Source: a virus. From it: a DNA stretch of 64,000 bases. Position 1 is the stretch's first letter. Each line of letters opens with the position of its first letter. The stretch is taken from positions 33,730-97,729 of the IMG/VR virus record IMGVR_UViG_3300009182_000002. One strand, written 5' to 3'. Under the pieces are notes generated by a model that saw only the letters and a program-made list of their open reading frames with translations, was not told the DNA's origin and ran no database searches. Below, in pieces: positions 51,203 through 60,246 of the stretch. Position numbers and translations under genes: made by a program.

Positions 51203-51476
51203 TCCTAGGCACCTTCAGGATCGTTCCCGGCTCAATGTTGAATGCGTCCAGAATGGTCGGGTTGGCGTCCATGATCCACCACCAGAGTCCCGGGTCTCCC
51301 AGAAGATCGGCAGCGACCATGTCCATTCGGTCGCCCTCAGTCCACTGGTACTCGATCCATCGAAACTCTCCCATTTGTAGTGGAGGTCTCCGCACTACCG
51401 TCCTTCGGACTTGGCCGTATAGATCTGCAACGGGCGTGACAACAGAGTTTGCGTATCGACTGTTTAGAAAGATCAC
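51195..51476 (-). CDS. LysM/tail-X-like baseplate protein
   Basis: GDR.D.VA...LGDP.LWW.I.DANP...PG..L.VP. Confidence 0.85.
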   Translation of the reverse strand: MIFLNSRYANSVVTPVADLYGQVRRTVVRRPPLQMGEFRWIEYQWTEGDRMDMVAADLLGDPGLWWWIMDANPTILDAFNIEPGTILKVPRNG

Positions 51477-53128
51477 GGCGTCGTCCCTGTTCCAGTGCCT
51501 GTGCCTGTGCCTGTTCCAGTACCTGTTCCGGTGTTTGATCCGGCGGGTGTACCGGGAACAAGAATTCCCGACTTAAGGTCTCCGTTCCCTGTTCCGGCAT
51601 CGCTGAAGAACTTGTTCGAGTCCTCCACACCGCTTCCCCATGTAAGGGGGCGCTGGATGGAAAGGTTGACCTGCGAGTACTTCGGCACCATGTTTTCAGT
51701 GAAGAGCAAGTGCTGAATCTCAACGCTGGTGATTCGACCAACGAACGTGATGTTGGGGCCCAACCAAACACGTACTGGGATGGCGTTCAAGAAACCGTAG
51801 TCAGCAGTGCGAGTGCTCTTATCGCGACCGTCCATTGCCAGAGGATCTTCCGAAGCACCTCCGAGGTACTTGCGGTGGTATGAGGGCTGACCATCTCCGT
51901 TGACTGATTTGTATAGGTACTCGATGTCTGCCAGCGTTCCGTAGGCCTGAAGAGCGTCTACTTTCTGCGCGATGGTTGCGTTCTCGGCGGAAGGTACGAA
52001 CTTTGGAGGCTGTTTTCCTCGACCTCCAAAGACCGAACCACTCACGTACGTAGGGTCTGAATCCGGAACGCCCTTCTCACCGGCTAGCGTCTTGTCTGAT
52101 TGCCAATTGGTGACTTCGATCAACTGGTCTCGTGTCATGGTCAGTTCGATGATCCGGTTTACGAACACCGTTAGACCGACACCAGCCCACCCGCCCATCA
52201 GCGGCAAATTCAGCGGCCTTGACCCCATGACGTTCTGTGGGTCGATGGACTCGGTCATCTGAGTGTTCATGGTCCACGACGACGGGTTGTAGTGGAACCT
52301 GAACCCGTACATGTGCGAGAAGGTCGGGTACGCCGGGTTGCCCTCGAACGTGTGAAGCATGCCATTGCGCCAAGTCGCACCGATGGTCTGCTGGATAGTA
52401 CGGAGTTCACGACCGTCGTACTGTGTGACTGTTCGAGTTCGTGGGCTTCCAAAAGCAATCTTGTTAAGACGAAGATTGGTCTCGATACCTGCCTTGGTAT
52501 CGATGAAAGTTTTGGTGACGCTGGTGGTGCTTCCTGCCCCCGGAGGATTCTGGAGGTTGCCCCCACCACCGGTAGCCGTGGCATCTTCCACGTAGTACTC
52601 GTCGTCCTCGTACTTCTCCATAACGTTTACGATGCTCTCTTGCGTCAGATCGCCCTTGCTAAGAATGGTGTAGACCGCCTTGTTGGTTCGGTAGTGCTGG
52701 TACACGGTGCCAACTAGACCACCGGGTGGCATCCTCGCTGGGTCACCGTTCTTGGCGGCAGGAACCGGAGTGCTACCTGCTCGACCTCCGCTGTTACCTA
52801 TGGGAGGCGCAGAGCCCGTGATCGAGTCCAGTTTGGACGCCATGTCGATAACTTGATCAAGGGTGAACGTCTTCTTTACCGTGTAAGCGCCAGACCACTG
52901 CACCTGAGTGGCGTCCAGCCCGATGTACTTCTTGGATGTCGTATCGGAAGATTTGTAGTCGGGGTTCTTGATGACCAACTGCAAGTAGCAGTTGCCATCA
53001 AGAGCGCTTGATTTGGGGAAGGTGTAGGTGACCTCGTACTGAACCTCGGAGAGGTTCTTGATCGTGACCTTGACATCTTTCTTAGTCAACGTGGGGGCAG
53101 TGATCGGGGGTAGAGAATTGTTAGCCAT
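51473..53128 (-). CDS. Tail-tube initiator / baseplate protein
   Basis: GF.FHYNP, G.I.S..I.H..F..NMVP; position after the TMPs; C-terminal (GT)n. Confidence 0.65.
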   Translation of the reverse strand: MANNSLPPITAPTLTKKDVKVTIKNLSEVQYEVTYTFPKSSALDGNCYLQLVIKNPDYKSSDTTSKKYIGLDATQVQWSGAYTVKKTFTLDQVIDMASKLDSITGSAPPIGNSGGRAGSTPVPAAKNGDPARMPPGGLVGTVYQHYRTNKAVYTILSKGDLTQESIVNVMEKYEDDEYYVEDATATGGGGNLQNPPGAGSTTSVTKTFIDTKAGIETNLRLNKIAFGSPRTRTVTQYDGRELRTIQQTIGATWRNGMLHTFEGNPAYPTFSHMYGFRFHYNPSSWTMNTQMTESIDPQNVMGSRPLNLPLMGGWAGVGLTVFVNRIIELTMTRDQLIEVTNWQSDKTLAGEKGVPDSDPTYVSGSVFGGRGKQPPKFVPSAENATIAQKVDALQAYGTLADIEYLYKSVNGDGQPSYHRKYLGGASEDPLAMDGRDKSTRTADYGFLNAIPVRVWLGPNITFVGRITSVEIQHLLFTENMVPKYSQVNLSIQRPLTWGSGVEDSNKFFSDAGTGNGDLKSGILVPGTPAGSNTGTGTGTGTGTGTGTGTTP

Positions 53129-55772
53129 AAGCCACCGTCAACTCCTTAGATTCAAGTTCCGTCTTGAGCACCTGCGCGAACCTCACTGCCTGCTTGCTGC
53201 TTGCTTCGCCGATTGCGACGTGGACTGTCATGTCCGTTTGGTGGTGGCCCCATTCATGGCGAACTTCCTCAGCCACCTCCGCCGGTAGCACCATCTCATT
53301 CTCGTGGATCTTGGCGATCTGGTCGTCCTCAATCCGCCACGCACCCTTGGAATACTGGTTGTACTTCGAGAACCACTCAGCGTCGTTGTTAACTGTGGTG
53401 TTGTAATTCTTGGTTCCGGACTGCCAACTGTCGCCCCAACCAGAGAAGTCGTGCGTAAATCCTGTCGGGGTAATTCCGCTGATACCCCAGTCAGTCCACT
53501 TGGTGAAGTTGTTAGACAACTTCTTCATAAACTGCCAGTTCTTCTCTGGGTCTTTCATCGTGTACATGTCCGCAGACGCGCCAAACATTGCACGAATACC
53601 ATCAAGGTGAACATTGTTTACTTGGTAAAGCCCAACGTCATAATGGGGTGCTCCGGAATCTTTCGGGTCAAGCACACGACCACTGGGGTTGTAAACTTCG
53701 CTCGGATCTCCCCCGGTCTCTCTCATGCCGATTGTCCAGAGGATTTTGGCAACGTCCTCAGAGACGTTGTGGGCCTTGATGAAGTCTTTGAGCCATTTGG
53801 GACCCTTGCCCGATGGACCGGAGTACGTTCCACTCCCATCTCCGGTGGCGGTGGTTCCCGAAGACGTTGAGTTGACTCCTGCGGGCGAGGGCGCGGGGGG
53901 CTTGTCGTCGTTCCTTACGTGGCCAAGGCTGGCCCATGGCGCGCTGTTCGTAATAACCTGAAGTATCGATTGCGCCTTAGCGGAAATGCCACTGAGGCCA
54001 ACGCTTACGCTGACCCCAAGGAACGCTGGAGAAGATGTGCCGAGGGTTGAGGTGCCGGTGCTGCCAGCGTTGTTGTTGGCTGGTTTTGTTCCCGGAGTTT
54101 GGCTAGTCGTCCCCGTACTTCCCGTGGTTCCTCCTGTGGTTGCCGCTCCAGTGCTGTCTCCGGGAACAGGAGTGTTAGGCACGCCCTGAGACCCACCATC
54201 CCAGTACCGGATGCTCTTCGTGTAGTGAGGCCCGTACCAGCCTGTGAACGCGGTGTTCTGCTCAACGGTGTCCTCGCGCGAGTTTGCCGCGTGGATAATG
54301 GTGTTGCCCCCAGCAAAGATGGCAATGTGGTGGGCACCGTTTCGGTACAGGATGAAGTCTCCCGGCTGCTCCTGTCCGTGCGGGATCTGCTTCGGCTTGG
54401 TGTCCGCTTCGTAGTCTCCCGTGTAGTCCGGTGCGTTAATGCCAAATTGCTTGAGCACCCACCAAGTGAAGGTCGCGCAATCCCAGCCGTTTTGGGGACT
54501 GGCGGACTGCTGTCCACCGGGAAGTGTGGATGAATCAATGTAGGGAACCTTGCCGACGTACTTCCTCGCAAGGCTGACGATCTCTCCACCAGTGACGTAC
54601 TTCTGCGCCCCGATAGCATCGAAGACATCGACAGCGTCGATGTAGCCACCGTTGGCCTTGAGCAAAGCGCCTACAGATCCTACGACCGCGCTTCCCGGTC
54701 CCGTGGACGTGAACCCTTCGTACGCGCTGAGCACGGTTGCGAGACCCTGAAGGGCGTCGCTGAGTATTCCCGCATTCTCGGCCAGCGATGTGAATGCGTC
54801 GTTCATCCCAGCCCCGAGATTCAACCCGGCGGAGTAACCATTCACCAATGAGTTCCGGAAAGCGTTTCCTTTGCGGCTCTCGCTGCTGGAGTAGCGCAGA
54901 CCTGCCGCACGAACGTTCAGGTTGCCGTTGTCGAACCCGAGCGACTTCATGGTCTTGGCGTCGTTCGCTGCGTAGCGTCCCTTGTTAGCGGTTCGCTTGA
55001 AGATTGCGTCCTTGATAAGCATCTGCATTCCGGGGTCTGGGATGTACGACTGGAGCATCAGGTCCATCGCCCCGCCCGGACGAAGTCCCATCTGGATCTG
55101 ATCAGCCGACGGGTTCGCCCCATACACGGTCTTAACAAGGTGGTCTGCGATAGACGCGACGTCCTTCGGGTTGCCCTTCGAGTCAAAGGACTCGAAGCCA
55201 AGCATCCGGAGTCGGTTAGTCATCACTGGGTTAGTGCTCTGCGAGCCGAGGATTCCGGAAACCTGCTCATTGTCAAGACCCGTTGTTAGGGACATCGCCC
55301 CAACTTGACCAAGCATGTTCTGGCCCGCTGCCCCGTATGGGTTGAAGCCCATGTTCGACAGGATGGCTGCGGATCGCTGTGCCGAGCCGACACTGGACTG
55401 GTAGTCGCCGAGGATGTTCTGCGACATTCGGGACAGCCGGTCAAAGTCGCCTGCACCCATGTGACGCCCGGTTGCCAGCGATGCTTGGAACAGAGCCTGC
55501 TGCATATCAACGGCATCAGCCGCCGCTGGCATCATGCCGAGGATTCCACCAGCAGCCGCAGTGCCGATACGGGCAGCCACAGAGCCCGCCGTCATTCCTG
55601 ATCCGCCGCTAGCGAGGATTGGCGGAGGGAACATCGGCATCGGAGCGGGTAGGCCGCCTCCGTCGCTCTTACTCACCTTGCTTTGAAGGTTGGACTTGAT
55701 CTGCGTCAGATCATTGATGATCTCCGCAAAAGCACCGTTGAACACGGTGTCCTTGGGGTGCTGCTCCGTCAT
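53121..55772 (-). CDS. Tape-measure protein paralogue B with NlpC/P60 and lytic transglycosylase-like domains
   Basis: TMP-like helical core; WDCATFT...HHIAI...IIHA; RETGG...GLYQVN. Confidence 0.8.
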   Translation of the reverse strand: MTEQHPKDTVFNGAFAEIINDLTQIKSNLQSKVSKSDGGGLPAPMPMFPPPILASGGSGMTAGSVAARIGTAAAGGILGMMPAAADAVDMQQALFQASLATGRHMGAGDFDRLSRMSQNILGDYQSSVGSAQRSAAILSNMGFNPYGAAGQNMLGQVGAMSLTTGLDNEQVSGILGSQSTNPVMTNRLRMLGFESFDSKGNPKDVASIADHLVKTVYGANPSADQIQMGLRPGGAMDLMLQSYIPDPGMQMLIKDAIFKRTANKGRYAANDAKTMKSLGFDNGNLNVRAAGLRYSSSESRKGNAFRNSLVNGYSAGLNLGAGMNDAFTSLAENAGILSDALQGLATVLSAYEGFTSTGPGSAVVGSVGALLKANGGYIDAVDVFDAIGAQKYVTGGEIVSLARKYVGKVPYIDSSTLPGGQQSASPQNGWDCATFTWWVLKQFGINAPDYTGDYEADTKPKQIPHGQEQPGDFILYRNGAHHIAIFAGGNTIIHAANSREDTVEQNTAFTGWYGPHYTKSIRYWDGGSQGVPNTPVPGDSTGAATTGGTTGSTGTTSQTPGTKPANNNAGSTGTSTLGTSSPAFLGVSVSVGLSGISAKAQSILQVITNSAPWASLGHVRNDDKPPAPSPAGVNSTSSGTTATGDGSGTYSGPSGKGPKWLKDFIKAHNVSEDVAKILWTIGMRETGGDPSEVYNPSGRVLDPKDSGAPHYDVGLYQVNNVHLDGIRAMFGASADMYTMKDPEKNWQFMKKLSNNFTKWTDWGISGITPTGFTHDFSGWGDSWQSGTKNYNTTVNNDAEWFSKYNQYSKGAWRIEDDQIAKIHENEMVLPAEVAEEVRHEWGHHQTDMTVHVAIGEASSKQAVRFAQVLKTELESKELTVAYG

Positions 55773-58651
55773 CAGAGATGCCCGCCTCCGATGCGGTCGA
55801 GCATGCTGTCCTCATCAAGCATCTGCTTGACCTTGCGGGCCACTCGCCGAGCATCGTCGTCCGTAGCCTTAGCAACAGACAGGTTGATAACAACGTTGTT
55901 CCCGATCTTGCTAGGCGACGAAGTCTGGCCGGCTCGAGACTCGCGCATCACGGTTCGCACTGCCTCGGCGGCAGGTGCCGGAAGGATCATCTCGTTCTGG
56001 TGGATGTTCGCGATCTGATCCTTGTCGATGCGCCACGCACCCTTTGAGAAACCTTGGTGCCAGTCGGGGTGCGCGTCGTAGTCTGCCAGTCCTTTTGAGT
56101 ACTCGGAAGAGGTGCCTGAGTAGGCGTTCCAATCATTCCAACCGTTGTATTTGGGGTCACTTTTGGTCAAGAAGCCGATGTGCGCGTTGTACGCGGGATC
56201 AAAGATCTTGGCCGGGGTGTAGTCAACGGTTTCACCGCCTGCGGTCTTGTTGGTCACATCATTCATTTGGAACAGGCCAAAATCCGTAGAACCGGCCCAT
56301 TCTCCGCTGGTGTTCTTGTGGGTGATGTTTGGATTTCCTCCCGACTCTCCAAGCACCACTCCGTAGGCGGTTCTCAGGTCTCCTCCTGAGAACCCGGTGT
56401 CGTGAAGAAGTTTCACCAAGTTGGCTCCGGACAATGTCCCAGAACCGTAGTTTCCTGATGCAACTCCGGGAGTGGCAGTCGAGTTGGCAGCACCAACACT
56501 TTGCGACGACGTTCCTTGATTTACTCCAAGCGATGCATAGCCCGGGTCTACTCCGATGGCGCTGAGGATGCTTTGGGCTTTGCCGCTTGTTCCACTCAAC
56601 CCGCTTCCGACGTTCACGCCAGTGAACTGCGGTGCAATCCCAGTGATGATGGGAGTTGACGAGGTGTTGGCGCTAGCAACAGTGGTGTTGGATGTCGATG
56701 CGCTGGACGCACTGCCCGTGTCGTTGGGTCCATTGATTCCGGGGGCGATGAAGACGTGCATCTCGTCCACGGCCTTGCCGTAGTCGCCGCCCCAACCCAA
56801 CTTGCCGCTGAACCCAGCCAAGATCTTGTGAGCCTCTGCCTGTTGCTCAGAAGACATGTAGTGCTTGCCAATGCCAGTGCTCTCGTCAGGGGCCTGCAAG
56901 ACGTCGTAACGGATATCGACAGCGTAACCAGCGTGGTCTGAAATCTTGTCCTTGGTCATGCGACCCGGACGGTACTCCCACGAGTCGAGAGGTCCCTTGG
57001 TCAAGGTGAGCGGACCAGCGCCGTTGTTACCAAGGAGTGGGTCTTCCTGCCATTGCTTAAGGAAGTCTTGGAAGATCGGACCAGCCCAGTCGGCAACCGT
57101 GATGCTGCGACCACCGGCAACGCTGAACGTTTTGAGGTGCGGATCGCCGTCTTGCAAGGCGGGGTGACCAGAGATCGTTAGACCTCCGTCAGCGAACCGC
57201 TTTGCGTTCAGGCTCTTGAAGAGATCCACGCCGTACTTCTGCACAGCGTCCGCCTGCACGACGAACTCTCCGTCGCTGAGTAGCGCGGGAATCTTGTCGC
57301 CCTTAGGACCACCGGGACCCCGAATCGTGCCGCCGCCAGCGTGACCAACCATCTTGAGCAGGCTGGTGATCGCGCTCCCGCCGGGAACCATGCTGAGCAT
57401 CCCGGCAATAGCCTGACCGGGACCAGTGCCCAAGAAGCCAGAGCCGAACCCGCTGACCGTTGCCAAGCCCTGAAGCAAATCGCTGATGATGCCGACGTTC
57501 GTAGCAAGTTCTGTGAACGCATCGTTCAGGCTCGATGCCGCGTCAAGACCGGCGCTGAATCCATTGACAGAAGAGTTACGGAAGGCATTGCTCTTACGAC
57601 TCTCACTGCTGGCGTAATTCATACCAGCGCCTCGCGGGTTGAGGCGGTCGTTGGTAAGCCCGAGTTTCCCGGCAGTCGTAGCATCGTTAGCCGTGTACTG
57701 GCCGTTGTTCAAGGCTTGCTTGAACATGTTGTCCTTGACCAACTGCTGCATCCCGGGATCGGGGATGTAGGACTGGAGCATCAGGTCAAGAGCGCCGCCG
57801 GGCCGAAGACCCATTTGGATCTGCTCTGGTTTGGGACTGTTTCCGTATACGACCTTGACAATGTGCTTAGCAATGGACGCAACGTCCTTTGGGTTGCCAG
57901 CAGAGTCAAACGTCTCGAAACCGATCATCCGCATGCGGTTGGTCATCACGGAGTTCGTGCTCTGGGTCGCGAGCGTTCCGGAGACCTGCTCGTTGGACAT
58001 GCCGGTCGTCAGCGAGATCGCGCCGACCTGACCGAGCATCTTCTGACCGGCAGCGCCGTAGGGATTGAACCCGAACTGCGAGACGATAGCGGCGGAACGC
58101 TGAGCGGAACCAATAGACGTCTGCATGTTGCCGAAGTTCGACTGGGTCATCCTCGACAACCTGTCGAAGTCACCGGCACCCATGTGGCGACCAGTGGCCA
58201 TAGACGCTTGGAAGAGCGCCTGCTGCATGTCAACGCCGTTGGCGGTGTCCGGCATCATGCCGAGAATGCCACCGCCGACAGCCGTGATACCACGAAGCGC
58301 GGCGGATGCGGGGGTGATGCTGCCGAGGCCGAGGCCTCCACCACCACCACCCTGCACGGGAGACGGGGGCAAGCCCATGGGCGGAGGAAGACCGCCGACA
58401 GGAGACCCGTTCGGAGGAGGCGGACCACCGCCCGTACCACCCGGGTTGTTGAAGGGGCTTGGTGCGATGGGCGTGCTGATTGCCCCAGTGCCCACAGGCT
58501 GACCGTTAGCCTGACCGGTACCGCCAGATCCGGTGGCGTTCTTGATGTTGGAAGACCACGTCTTAGCAGCGGTTCCGCTGTTGTTGAGCAGGTCGTTGAT
58601 GTCGTGAAGCAGTTGTTTGATCTGCTTCAGATCATCAATGTGAGTGCTCAT
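55772..58651 (-). CDS. Tape-measure protein paralogue A with M15 peptidase and lytic transglycosylase-like domains
   Basis: Follows the chaperone; HAGGG..GPG...D.IPA.LSDGEFV; SDH.G.AVD, WGG...DEMH; ESGG...GLFQMN. Confidence 0.85.
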   Translation of the reverse strand: MSTHIDDLKQIKQLLHDINDLLNNSGTAAKTWSSNIKNATGSGGTGQANGQPVGTGAISTPIAPSPFNNPGGTGGGPPPPNGSPVGGLPPPMGLPPSPVQGGGGGGLGLGSITPASAALRGITAVGGGILGMMPDTANGVDMQQALFQASMATGRHMGAGDFDRLSRMTQSNFGNMQTSIGSAQRSAAIVSQFGFNPYGAAGQKMLGQVGAISLTTGMSNEQVSGTLATQSTNSVMTNRMRMIGFETFDSAGNPKDVASIAKHIVKVVYGNSPKPEQIQMGLRPGGALDLMLQSYIPDPGMQQLVKDNMFKQALNNGQYTANDATTAGKLGLTNDRLNPRGAGMNYASSESRKSNAFRNSSVNGFSAGLDAASSLNDAFTELATNVGIISDLLQGLATVSGFGSGFLGTGPGQAIAGMLSMVPGGSAITSLLKMVGHAGGGTIRGPGGPKGDKIPALLSDGEFVVQADAVQKYGVDLFKSLNAKRFADGGLTISGHPALQDGDPHLKTFSVAGGRSITVADWAGPIFQDFLKQWQEDPLLGNNGAGPLTLTKGPLDSWEYRPGRMTKDKISDHAGYAVDIRYDVLQAPDESTGIGKHYMSSEQQAEAHKILAGFSGKLGWGGDYGKAVDEMHVFIAPGINGPNDTGSASSASTSNTTVASANTSSTPIITGIAPQFTGVNVGSGLSGTSGKAQSILSAIGVDPGYASLGVNQGTSSQSVGAANSTATPGVASGNYGSGTLSGANLVKLLHDTGFSGGDLRTAYGVVLGESGGNPNITHKNTSGEWAGSTDFGLFQMNDVTNKTAGGETVDYTPAKIFDPAYNAHIGFLTKSDPKYNGWNDWNAYSGTSSEYSKGLADYDAHPDWHQGFSKGAWRIDKDQIANIHQNEMILPAPAAEAVRTVMRESRAGQTSSPSKIGNNVVINLSVAKATDDDARRVARKVKQMLDEDSMLDRIGGGHL

Positions 58652-58818
58652 GCGGACCTTCCTCTACGACTACGTCTAGCAACGGCTCTTTGCAGCCACT
58701 CGTACCTCTCCCTAGGGGAGAGGGCCCTGATATCGCTCAGGGTCCATCCGGGGTATGCGACAGAGATTGCTTCGTAGGAATCGAGTAGGTTCGCGTATTC
58801 GGTTAAATCAGAGGCGAA
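58648..58818 (-). CDS. Frameshift extension of the tail assembly chaperone (gpGT-like)
   Basis: 57-codon +1 frame (..YPGWTLSDIRALSPRER.EW..) with no ATG/GTG/TTG; stop overlaps the TMP ATG. Confidence 0.7.
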   Translation of the reverse strand, partial: FASDLTEYANLLDSYEAISVAYPGWTLSDIRALSPRERYEWLQRAVARRSRRGRSA

Positions 58819-59617
58819 ACAAGGCTGCCATCGCGAACGGCAGGCTCATCTCCTCTTCGCAGTGCTGACACTTCTTGGTGATCTCGCCGAGGCGGGGTCC
58901 AGTAACCCGCTTGGCAATCTCTTCTACGATTTTCTCTCGGTCTCGGATGCTCAACTTCCGAACCTGTCCTGCGCCCATAACGGGAAGCCCATTGATCTCC
59001 GTCACGCACGACTCAAGCAACGCCGTGTTGAGTTCCGAGTTGGTCTTATCAACGGCATCGAGGATCTTCCGCTGGGTAGCGCCGGTAGGAAGAGTGACCT
59101 CGACCGGGCCGATCTTGCAGTTGACCTCGAAGTTCCTATCGCCCGGGTTCTCCATCACACGAACCGGAACGTCCTCAACGAGGTCGATGGTCAGGTCCTG
59201 AGACTCGTTGCAGGAAGGGCAGGTGACCGAGACGTCCACCGTGGGGCCGAAGGTTGCGCGACGGATTCCGAGCAAGAGGTCGTCTCGGTCTCCAGACAGG
59301 AGCATGTCCAGCATCTGACCGTTCGGCTTGTTATCTCCGAGGCGGACTACTCCGCGCTGAAGAATTGCCGACAGGAACTTTCCGGTTCCCTGAGTCTTGG
59401 AGATGTACTCCTCGTCCTCACCGTTGAGTTCCCGGACCTCGCACTCCCTAACAACCTCGCCCTTGTCGTTGACGAAACCGCCGGACAGTGTGACGAAGGT
59501 GTCGGGGAGTTCAGTAGCGACGATGCTGGGGATTTCGGTGTCGTCCTCAGCAAGGGCCTTAGCAACCATCTCGTTGATAAGGTCCGGGCTGTCCACTGCG
59601 TTCACGGTGTTATTCAC
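58808..59617 (-). CDS. Tail assembly chaperone / T4 gp26-like
   Basis: RELNGEDEE, GDR..LL..IR..TFG, CPSC, C..C; lies between tube and TMP. Confidence 0.8.
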   Translation of the reverse strand: MNNTVNAVDSPDLINEMVAKALAEDDTEIPSIVATELPDTFVTLSGGFVNDKGEVVRECEVRELNGEDEEYISKTQGTGKFLSAILQRGVVRLGDNKPNGQMLDMLLSGDRDDLLLGIRRATFGPTVDVSVTCPSCNESQDLTIDLVEDVPVRVMENPGDRNFEVNCKIGPVEVTLPTGATQRKILDAVDKTNSELNTALLESCVTEINGLPVMGAGQVRKLSIRDREKIVEEIAKRVTGPRLGEITKKCQHCEEEMSLPFAMAALFRL

Positions 59618-59658: not shown

Positions 59659-60246
59659 TTAAGAGGGGAAAGTAGTGGAGGCGTTACCGGTTGCGTAGTT
59701 ATCAGCCCACGTCATCTCGAATCCCTCGTGGACAACAGACATCTGCTCCACCATGAGGGCGTTGTCGCCAGCGTTCAGGTCTGAGTAGGCCACCGAGGTG
59801 ATCCATGCGTTGTAAACCTTGAACCGCAGCGCCACGTTGTTGGTGTCGTTGTGACCCGGGTGCTTCAACACCGAGATGTCGATGGTGGTCCGGAACTGAC
59901 CCTTGGACGTGTTGGTACCGGCGGAGATGTCGAACAGACGCTTCATCCATAGCCAGTTCTGGTTAGTACCAAGAACGACACCGCGAGTGAAAGTCAAAGG
60001 TGAGAAACTTGTCTGACCCGGAATCTGATGTACATTAGTGTTATAGCCTCCCTCGCGGTAAGGGATAGACTCCGTTGTAACAGTCAAACCACTGATCTGA
60101 GTGAAACCAATGCTGGTATCCAACTTGACCGCTGCGGCGTTGCTGCCCGGGTCAGAGATGTTGGTGAACTTGGCGAGGAACCGGAAATTCCGTACGGGGT
60201 CAGTCTCCAGACTTGACCGAAGATTGACGTAATTAGGCGTGGCCAC
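59659..60246 (-). CDS. Tail tube protein (T4 gp19-like)
   Basis: DP.RNFRF, GF..ISGL, YREGG, PG, LTFTRG, NAW, HEG. Confidence 0.93.
   Translation of the reverse strand: MATPNYVNLRSSLETDPVRNFRFLAKFTNISDPGSNAAAVKLDTSIGFTQISGLTVTTESIPYREGGYNTNVHQIPGQTSFSPLTFTRGVVLGTNQNWLWMKRLFDISAGTNTSKGQFRTTIDISVLKHPGHNDTNNVALRFKVYNAWITSVAYSDLNAGDNALMVEQMSVVHEGFEMTWADNYATGNASTTFPS

Follow-up and report, generated by a model that had tools for sequence, protein, structure and literature searches.

Tape-measure proteins set the length of phage tails and open the way for the DNA, and they are regarded as homotrimers (or hexamers) encoded by a single gene. The tape measure of mycobacteriophage TM4, on which Piuri and Hatfull worked in 2006, reportedly carries peptidoglycan-hydrolase motifs which are thought to aid infection of tougher-walled cells. 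In virions of Tuc2009 and TP901-1, two alternate forms of the Tal protein are said to occur that arise by proteolysis of one product, a finding ascribed to Stockdale et al. in 2013. The tape measure pb2 of phage T5 bears a muralytic Zn-peptidase close to the C-terminus and, once expelled, serves to breach the wall (Boulanger et al. 2008 and Linares et al. 2023, both as cited in PMC11445458). Tape measures with wall hydrolases, such as T5 pb2 and that of TM4, are already well known. Here a locus is described in which two paralogous genes share the corresponding position. It is located in a window of 64,000 nucleotides (nt), which is the right-hand 64 kb of the IMG/VR record IMGVR_UViG_3300009182_000002; this record is a metagenomic assembly of a virus, is rated complete and comprises 97,729 base pairs (bp), with direct terminal repeats of 123 bp. 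Among cultured relatives, the Streptomyces myoviruses BRock, GiJojo and pSt2308 come closest to the phage by their tail sheath (40% identity).

The two paralogues, termed A and B, encode large proteins in which different predicted wall-degrading domains are mounted on a common scaffold. We propose, with about even confidence, that A is the tape-measure protein and that B is an ancient tandem duplicate which was kept as a tape-measure-derived partner and is loaded together with A.

A and B are old paralogues under purifying selection

The two open reading frames (ORFs) announced in the initial annotation are present on the minus strand. Their junction reads ctcTGATGacg, so that stop and start codons overlap in TGATG, and a GGAGG motif is found 12 nt upstream of the ATG of B. 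The stop codon of B in turn overlaps the start of a 551-amino-acid (aa) gene by 8 nt. Because of these overlapping stop and start codons, A, B and the 551-aa gene appear to be translationally coupled and encoded on one message. The shared core, linker motif and C-terminus that had been described for A and B were likewise recovered, and the linker and C-terminal motifs are kept in relatives.

In BLASTP comparisons, the N-terminal parts of A and B are 57% identical over 430 aa (E 1e-139) and the C-terminal parts 31% identical over 315 aa (E 4e-27); identity over the whole length is 49%. The core (residues 120-420 of A) is 70% identical to B at the protein level and 67% identical at the DNA level. 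Within the core, the proportion of synonymous differences (pS) is 0.72, which means that synonymous sites are saturated, and the proportion of nonsynonymous differences (pN) is 0.20, in agreement with the earlier remark that many of the DNA differences are synonymous. The ratio of nonsynonymous to synonymous substitution rates (dN/dS) between the paralogues was computed at ~0.10 and falls to 0.07 across residues 120-300. Comparisons of A-types with A-types and of B-types with B-types also gave pN values far below pS, which bears out the claim that both copies are maintained. We conclude that a genuine, old duplication is present and that purifying selection acts on both copies.

No stretch of exact DNA identity between the two genes is longer than 17 nt, so that recent gene conversion or duplication during assembly has not taken place. 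The initial annotation had itself named an assembly chimera as one of the findings that would undo its proposal. Since the record stems from a metagenomic assembly, two strain variants of one gene might have been joined in tandem by the assembler; the chance of such an artefact is virtually nil. Strain variants would be difficult to reconcile with a pair of proteins of such low overall identity that differ in their middle domains, have saturated synonymous sites and share no long identical tract. Moreover, the tandem recurs in contigs from other samples at 57-73% identity, and the identical A protein is recorded on three contigs, as is the identical B protein. Given the conserved A-B tandem in two relatives (L003 and L001), the chimera was rejected.

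Evidence for A as the probable tape-measure protein

Membership of A and B in the tape-measure class was judged by position, by neighbourhood to a chaperone gene and by features known from solved tape measures. With respect to position, the genes follow one another as sheath, tube, 269-aa gene, A, B, 551-aa gene, hub, gp25 and gpJ, which places A and B between the tube and chaperone genes and the baseplate hub genes.

The 269-aa gene matches the Pfam family T4_baseplate (PF12322, E 2.4e-10) and phrog_150, and a syntenic gene of 268-292 aa is present in L001, L008, pSt2308, GiJojo and L061. It is followed by 156 nt which are open in the +1 frame, lack a start codon, encode a peptide containing YPGWTLSDIRALSPRERYEWL and end at the start of A. 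Five lineages (the window phage, L001, L008, pSt2308 (L007) and L061) have conserved both this peptide (W[TS]L[ST][DE][IV][RK].L[ST].RER..W[LV]) and a YTR-TTT-CRN site, which reads TTG-TTT-CGC in the window. It is this conserved, startless extension directly preceding A that suggests a chaperone neighbour. A tail assembly chaperone made in a short and a frameshift-extended form is reportedly encoded beside the tape-measure gene, according to work of Xu, Hendrix and Duda from 2004. The 269-aa gene product is a probable tail assembly chaperone, and the extension is a candidate product of programmed +1 (or -2) frameshifting. There are also hints that the T4 hub-assembly family PF12322 may be a tape-measure chaperone.

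Two observations concern the annotation of these genes in cultured phages. The 65-aa gp83 of GiJojo looks as if the frameshift extension had been annotated there as a gene of its own. The tape-measure-position and chaperone-like genes of GiJojo (L093, 13572-17880) and pSt2308 (L007, 8442-12720) are annotated as hypothetical.

The N-terminus of A is rich in Gly and Pro. After it come the core, a stretch that is hydrophobic and rich in Gly, and the motif GPGGPKGDKIPALLSDGEFV, referred to as the hook. The combination of hydrophobic stretch and hook known from solved tape measures is present in A only. The hook region of A matches eight PHROG families, six of which are tape-measure families, and residues 360-478 match residues 945-1060 of the phage JBD30 tape-measure protein (8rk3_A, E 2.9e-4). 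In JBD30 gp46 the latter residues precede a C-terminal coiled coil that is anchored in the baseplate (PMC11445458). The 97.7-kb genome yielded no further tape-measure candidate.

Searches with the shared core were less informative. The core profile had no matches in the PDB, and Pfam returned nothing significant for the core. Its nearest named clusters in the ESM Atlas are the tape-measure families PF10145 and PF20155 (score 0.91), which is a lead only. In the AlphaFold2 (AF2) model, residues 160-350 of A are helical, with a predicted local distance difference test (pLDDT) score of 60-83. The model of full-length A reached a pLDDT of 46, and Foldseek gave nothing significant with it.

Predicted peptidase and glycosidase domains

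According to the initial annotation, A and B carry different hydrolase cassettes. This holds for the peptidases. Residues 500-640 of A contain the Zn-ligand signature H-x6-D ... H with an upstream YR, and the motifs YR, SDHAGYAVD and DEMH, which we take to be M15B signatures, are invariant in the four orthologues with this module. The Pfam match to Peptidase_M15_4 (PF13539) is below threshold in A (15.4 bits at a cut-off of 25) as well as in the orthologues P0004 (21.2 bits) and P0007 (18.6 bits). No sequence match was found for the module in the PDB. Its AF2 model (pLDDT 61) had no match in Foldseek; in VIA-align it was superposed on Hedgehog-N and MepA with Z scores of 3.6-3.8 (109-113 residues aligned), values tied with those of unrelated folds. 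The module is best described as M15/LAS-like, with putative Zn-peptidase activity. For B, the assignment to NlpC/P60 is based on PF00877 (49.6 bits at a cut-off of 23) and on PDB entry 8er5_A (E 9e-9), and the triad C432, H482 and H494 is invariant in five B-types.

The part of the claim that concerned the glycan-cleaving domains did not stand. In A, both PF18896 (40.8 bits) and PF01464 (26.4 bits) score above cut-off, and the catalytic Glu, E769, is invariant among A-types. In B, PF18896 (SLT_3) reaches 21 bits and remains under the cut-off of 27; its orthologues carry PF01464/PF18896, and the catalytic E685 is invariant in B-types. The domains of A and B represent one SLT-type domain whose copies have diverged, rather than different families.

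Both proteins carry the motif SKGAWRI..DQIA.IH.NEM.LPA..AE.VR near the C-terminus. It is followed by TVMRE..AGQ... in all A-types and by HE[WY]GHH in all B-types. Because outgroup proteins have an A-like tail, it is the C-terminal tail of B that is derived.

The B-specific sequence HE[WY]GHH (residues 839-844 of B; 53241-53258, minus strand) is invariant in five B-types, fits the pattern HExxH and is not found in A-types or outgroups. An invariant Glu is located 13 residues past its second His. It may serve as a metal site on the axis of the tail, or represent a minimal zincin.

Occurrence of the tandem in relatives

When 1.84 billion proteins were searched with the core profile, 75 representative clusters were detected. 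With few exceptions, members of the family are 800-1150 aa long, and the core is always located at about residues 100-400. Among 40 clusters scanned for domains, M23 was present in 23, NlpC/P60 in ten and SLT_3 in 24. Scanning of the family alignment against larger collections of metagenome and genome contigs yielded no relatives, and a comparison of A with a collection of phage isolates gave no DNA match and only one weak protein match.

The A-B order recurs in L003, where the genes overlap by 1 nt and B is 59% identical to B of the window, and in L001, where the stop codon of A overlaps the start codon of B as ATGA and the contig ends within B. Three further pairs of A-type and B-type proteins (P0003 and P0008, P0007 and P0009, P0004 and P0010) are assigned to each other by the equal sizes of their contigs only (13282, 30156 and 6558 bases). 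A single copy was found in all other relatives that were fetched with enough flanking sequence, namely at five loci in the P0014 clade, at some 43 in the P0087 clade and in pSt2308. GiJojo, L008 and L061 also have a single gene in the same synteny. Because all these relatives have one copy, the duplication is specific to a small clade. With about 50 loci that are single-copy at the corresponding position, the premise of the initial annotation that one tape-measure gene is the norm holds for the relatives. Searches of a literature library retrieved no published account of conserved tandem (duplicated or paired) tape-measure genes.

Within the A-types, domains are exchanged on an otherwise conserved scaffold. 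When P0003, P0006 and P0013 were compared with P0001, P0004, P0005 and P0007 (alignment A1), the middle peptidase was found to be swapped between an M15-like and a CHAP-like module and, independently, the C-terminal glycosidase between SLT_3 and another lysozyme-like module.

Proposed arrangement in the tail and alternative explanations

If A is the tape measure and B its duplicated partner, B would have kept the two modules needed for entry into the tail, i.e. the N-terminal core and the C-terminal motif, while it lost the hook motif and came to carry a different peptidase. The upstream chaperone, in its short and frameshift-extended forms, would bind the shared core, and the shared C-terminal motif would anchor both chains in the baseplate hub. 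Because of this proposed common binding and anchoring, both A and B would be located in the tail, in trimers that are either mixed or parallel, and contraction would expel them. With one tail, the host wall could then be exposed to an M15-like peptidase, an NlpC/P60 peptidase and two glycan-cleaving domains of the SLT type; probably both enzyme sets are delivered by every tail. We infer the presence of B in the virion, its assembly with A and all of the enzyme activities. A complex predicted for two C-termini of A (residues 865-959) and one of B (residues 805-883) scored 0.30, compared with a mark of 0.32, a value that counts neither for nor against binding. In a more specific form of the proposal, A and B constitute an obligate hetero-oligomeric tape measure in the tail lumen of this phage clade; one frameshifting chaperone would recruit both chains via their common core, the same C-terminal motif would anchor them, their ratio would be fixed by translational coupling, and A would measure while B adds wall digestion. 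This form is put forward tentatively, as a possibility that we rather doubt.

Several findings weigh against the pairing of a tape measure with a tape-measure-derived partner. Some of them concern the core: no curated tape-measure family matched it in the Pfam search; PF10145 (PhageMin_Tail) gave an E value of 0.62 in one of five core sequences and had no match in the genome; alignment of the core with a PF10145-bearing protein by hhalign was negative; and the core is predicted to consist of numerous short helices and shows a degree of conservation that is unusual in a tape measure. Others concern B. The hook is missing from B, where the pairwise alignment with A has a gap, and B may thus not extend along the lumen of the tube; in every pair B is shorter than its A partner by 70-131 aa. 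Finally, a tree of the core does not separate A and B clades cleanly.

In one alternative, neither A nor B is the tape measure, both being ejected or tail-associated lysins, and tail length is set elsewhere, for instance by the 551-aa ORF. The lack of a match to a curated tape-measure family is what one would then expect, and the SEA-PHAGES annotators left the GiJojo homologue as 'hypothetical protein'. We consider this very improbable, given that the gene directly preceding A and B is chaperone-like and has a conserved frameshift extension, that A shares the hook motif with JBD30 gp46 and that in the single-copy relatives no large gene but this one lies between tube and hub. These relatives do not keep the 551-aa ORF at the corresponding position, and the look-alikes of the core in the ESM Atlas are tape-measure clusters, the latter again being a lead only.

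The findings on B touch the claim of the initial annotation that two full-length tape measures are present, which could not be upheld: only A keeps the hook, and B is shorter and has a derived C-terminal tail. B might even be located outside the tape-measure bundle, as a tail-tip or hub lysin that docks at the hub via its C-terminal motif, with A alone measuring the tail. T4 gp5 or Tal proteins would provide a working parallel for such a lysin. Besides the missing hook and the consistently shorter length, the derived tail with its invariant HE[WY]GHH would be in keeping with this role, and so would the PHROG labels on B, which read 'minor tail protein' and 'tail protein with lysin activity'. 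However, B retains the whole core of ~300 aa at 70% identity and under strong constraint, which is hard to square with docking at the hub alone, and the phage has a separate gpD/gp27-like hub protein. On balance, a hub lysin is regarded as unlikely.

A and B might also serve as alternative tape measures which form homotrimers of either protein and give rise to two virion types, a kind of bet-hedging like that of the Tal proteins of Tuc2009 and TP901-1. Two tail-fibre forms in one lysate, reportedly observed by Stockdale et al. in 2013, would be a precedent, and both proteins have kept the core and the C-terminal motif while their peptidase cassettes differ. Yet relatives have kept the tight coupling by TGATG or ATGA, which speaks for both proteins being made together in every cell, and without the hook B is a doubtful stand-alone tape measure. 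Two virion types are accordingly judged improbable.

If A and B do form a pair of tape measure and partner, such a conserved, diverged pair would mean that a heteromeric bundle is possible or that a tape measure has been turned into a second ejected enzyme carrier. This bears on the measurement of tails, on the number of enzymes per virion and on the adaptation of phages to thick or heavily cross-linked walls. The swapping of M15-like, CHAP-like, M23, NlpC/P60 and SLT cassettes on a fixed scaffold is a natural source of virion-associated lysins. In addition, the conserved +1-frame extension gives an unannotated group of myoviruses, including the BRock-like phages of Streptomyces, a recognisable pair of chaperone and tape-measure genes.

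Neighbouring genes and feature coordinates

Coordinates of the genes and domains discussed are compiled in Table 1. The hub gene is presumed to provide the anchor for the C-termini of the tape measure.

The 551-aa ORF has no match in Pfam or PHROG. Its product ends in a Gly-Thr repeat encoded by (GT)n, and the gene is missing at the corresponding position in pSt2308, GiJojo and L008. It was considered as a third paralogue and rejected, being unrelated to A.

The left arm of the genome encodes terminase, portal, capsid, a fibre and a Ser/Thr-rich protein of 1638 aa. The ORF for the latter (G000:C1:4607-9523, minus strand, outside the window) is located between the head and the neck/tail genes and has no PHROG match. 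It was rejected as a tape-measure gene for want of tape-measure features; the protein is probably a fibre or spike, and it is unrelated to the tailspike of GiJojo.

Table 1. Genes, domains and motifs of the A/B locus (positions in the window).
Feature	Position	Strand	Basis or remark
Tail sheath gene, 935 aa	60268..63075	-	phrog_23 E 3e-42; Pfam Phage_sheath_1C
Tail tube gene, 195 aa, T4 gp19-like	59659..60246	-	PF06841 E 5e-28; phrog_4542
269-aa gene, probable tail assembly chaperone (0 frame)	58808..59617	-	Between tube and A; PF12322, phrog_150
+1-frame extension of the chaperone-like gene, candidate frameshift product	58648..58845	-	Conserved peptide and site
Paralogue A, 959 aa (P0001), probable tape-measure protein with M15-like peptidase and SLT lysozyme-like domain	55772..58651	-	
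A, shared N-terminal core, residues 120-420	57392..58294	-	Helical; Gly-rich hydrophobic stretches on both flanks
A, tape-measure 'hook' motif GPGGPKGDKIPALLSDGEFV, residues 440-478	57218..57334	-	PHROG and JBD30 8rk3_A matches
A, M15/LAS-like Zn-peptidase module, residues 500-640	56732..57154	-	Sub-threshold Pfam match and invariant motifs
A, SLT_3/SLT lysozyme-like domain, residues 750-841	56129..56404	-	PF18896, PF01464 above cut-off
A, C-terminal motif shared with B, residues 869-899	55955..56047	-	Invariant positions; 66% identical to B
Paralogue B, 883 aa (P0002), tape-measure-derived, with NlpC/P60 and SLT-type domain	53121..55772	-	
B, shared N-terminal core, residues 75-375	54648..55550	-	Similarity to A core
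B, NlpC/P60 cysteine peptidase domain, residues 424-520	54213..54503	-	PF00877, PDB 8er5_A, invariant triad
B, diverged SLT-type domain, residues 674-762	53487..53753	-	PF18896 below cut-off; invariant E685
B, shared C-terminal motif followed by B-specific HE[WY]GHH, residues 808-844	53241..53351	-	Invariant among B-types
551-aa gene, no family match	51473..53128	-	Same operon; membership in A/B system uncertain
Baseplate hub gene, gpD/gp27-like, 410 aa	49970..51202	-	phrog_52 E 1.7e-13; PF05954 E 5e-5 (below cut-off)

Comparison with known systems

The cultured relatives resemble the window phage in layout. pSt2308 and GiJojo share with it the series of sheath, tube, ~280-aa gene, large gene, baseplate, gp25 and gpJ, but pSt2308 (XTS03733) and GiJojo (gp84), which belong to the BRock-like group, have one gene of 1056-1057 aa where the window phage has A and B. 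The C-terminal 265 aa of A align to the large gene product of pSt2308 with 25% identity (E 5e-6), and in that phage, too, the upstream gene is followed by the +1-frame extension. Unlike in A and B, the N-terminal core of the large gene product of pSt2308 and GiJojo is too diverged to be detected by the core profile.

JBD30 gp46 (8rk3; PMC11445458) has in common with A the Gly/Ala-rich hydrophobic stretch and the 'hook' GPG..D.IP..S..EF. It differs from both A and B in that it is encoded by a single gene, does not have their N-terminal core and carries no hydrolase domains. T5 pb2 is the product of a single gene of a siphovirus with one enzyme domain, whereas the present phage is a myovirus with two paralogues and four putative catalytic domains. 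In the case of TM4, wall-hydrolase modules are found inside the tape measure as in A and B; this phage, however, is a siphovirus whose one gene has short motifs, not two full cassettes in two paralogues. The Tal proteins of Tuc2009 and TP901-1 parallel A and B in that one phage has two versions of a lysin-bearing tail protein. There, the two forms originate from one gene product, while here they are encoded by two anciently diverged genes.

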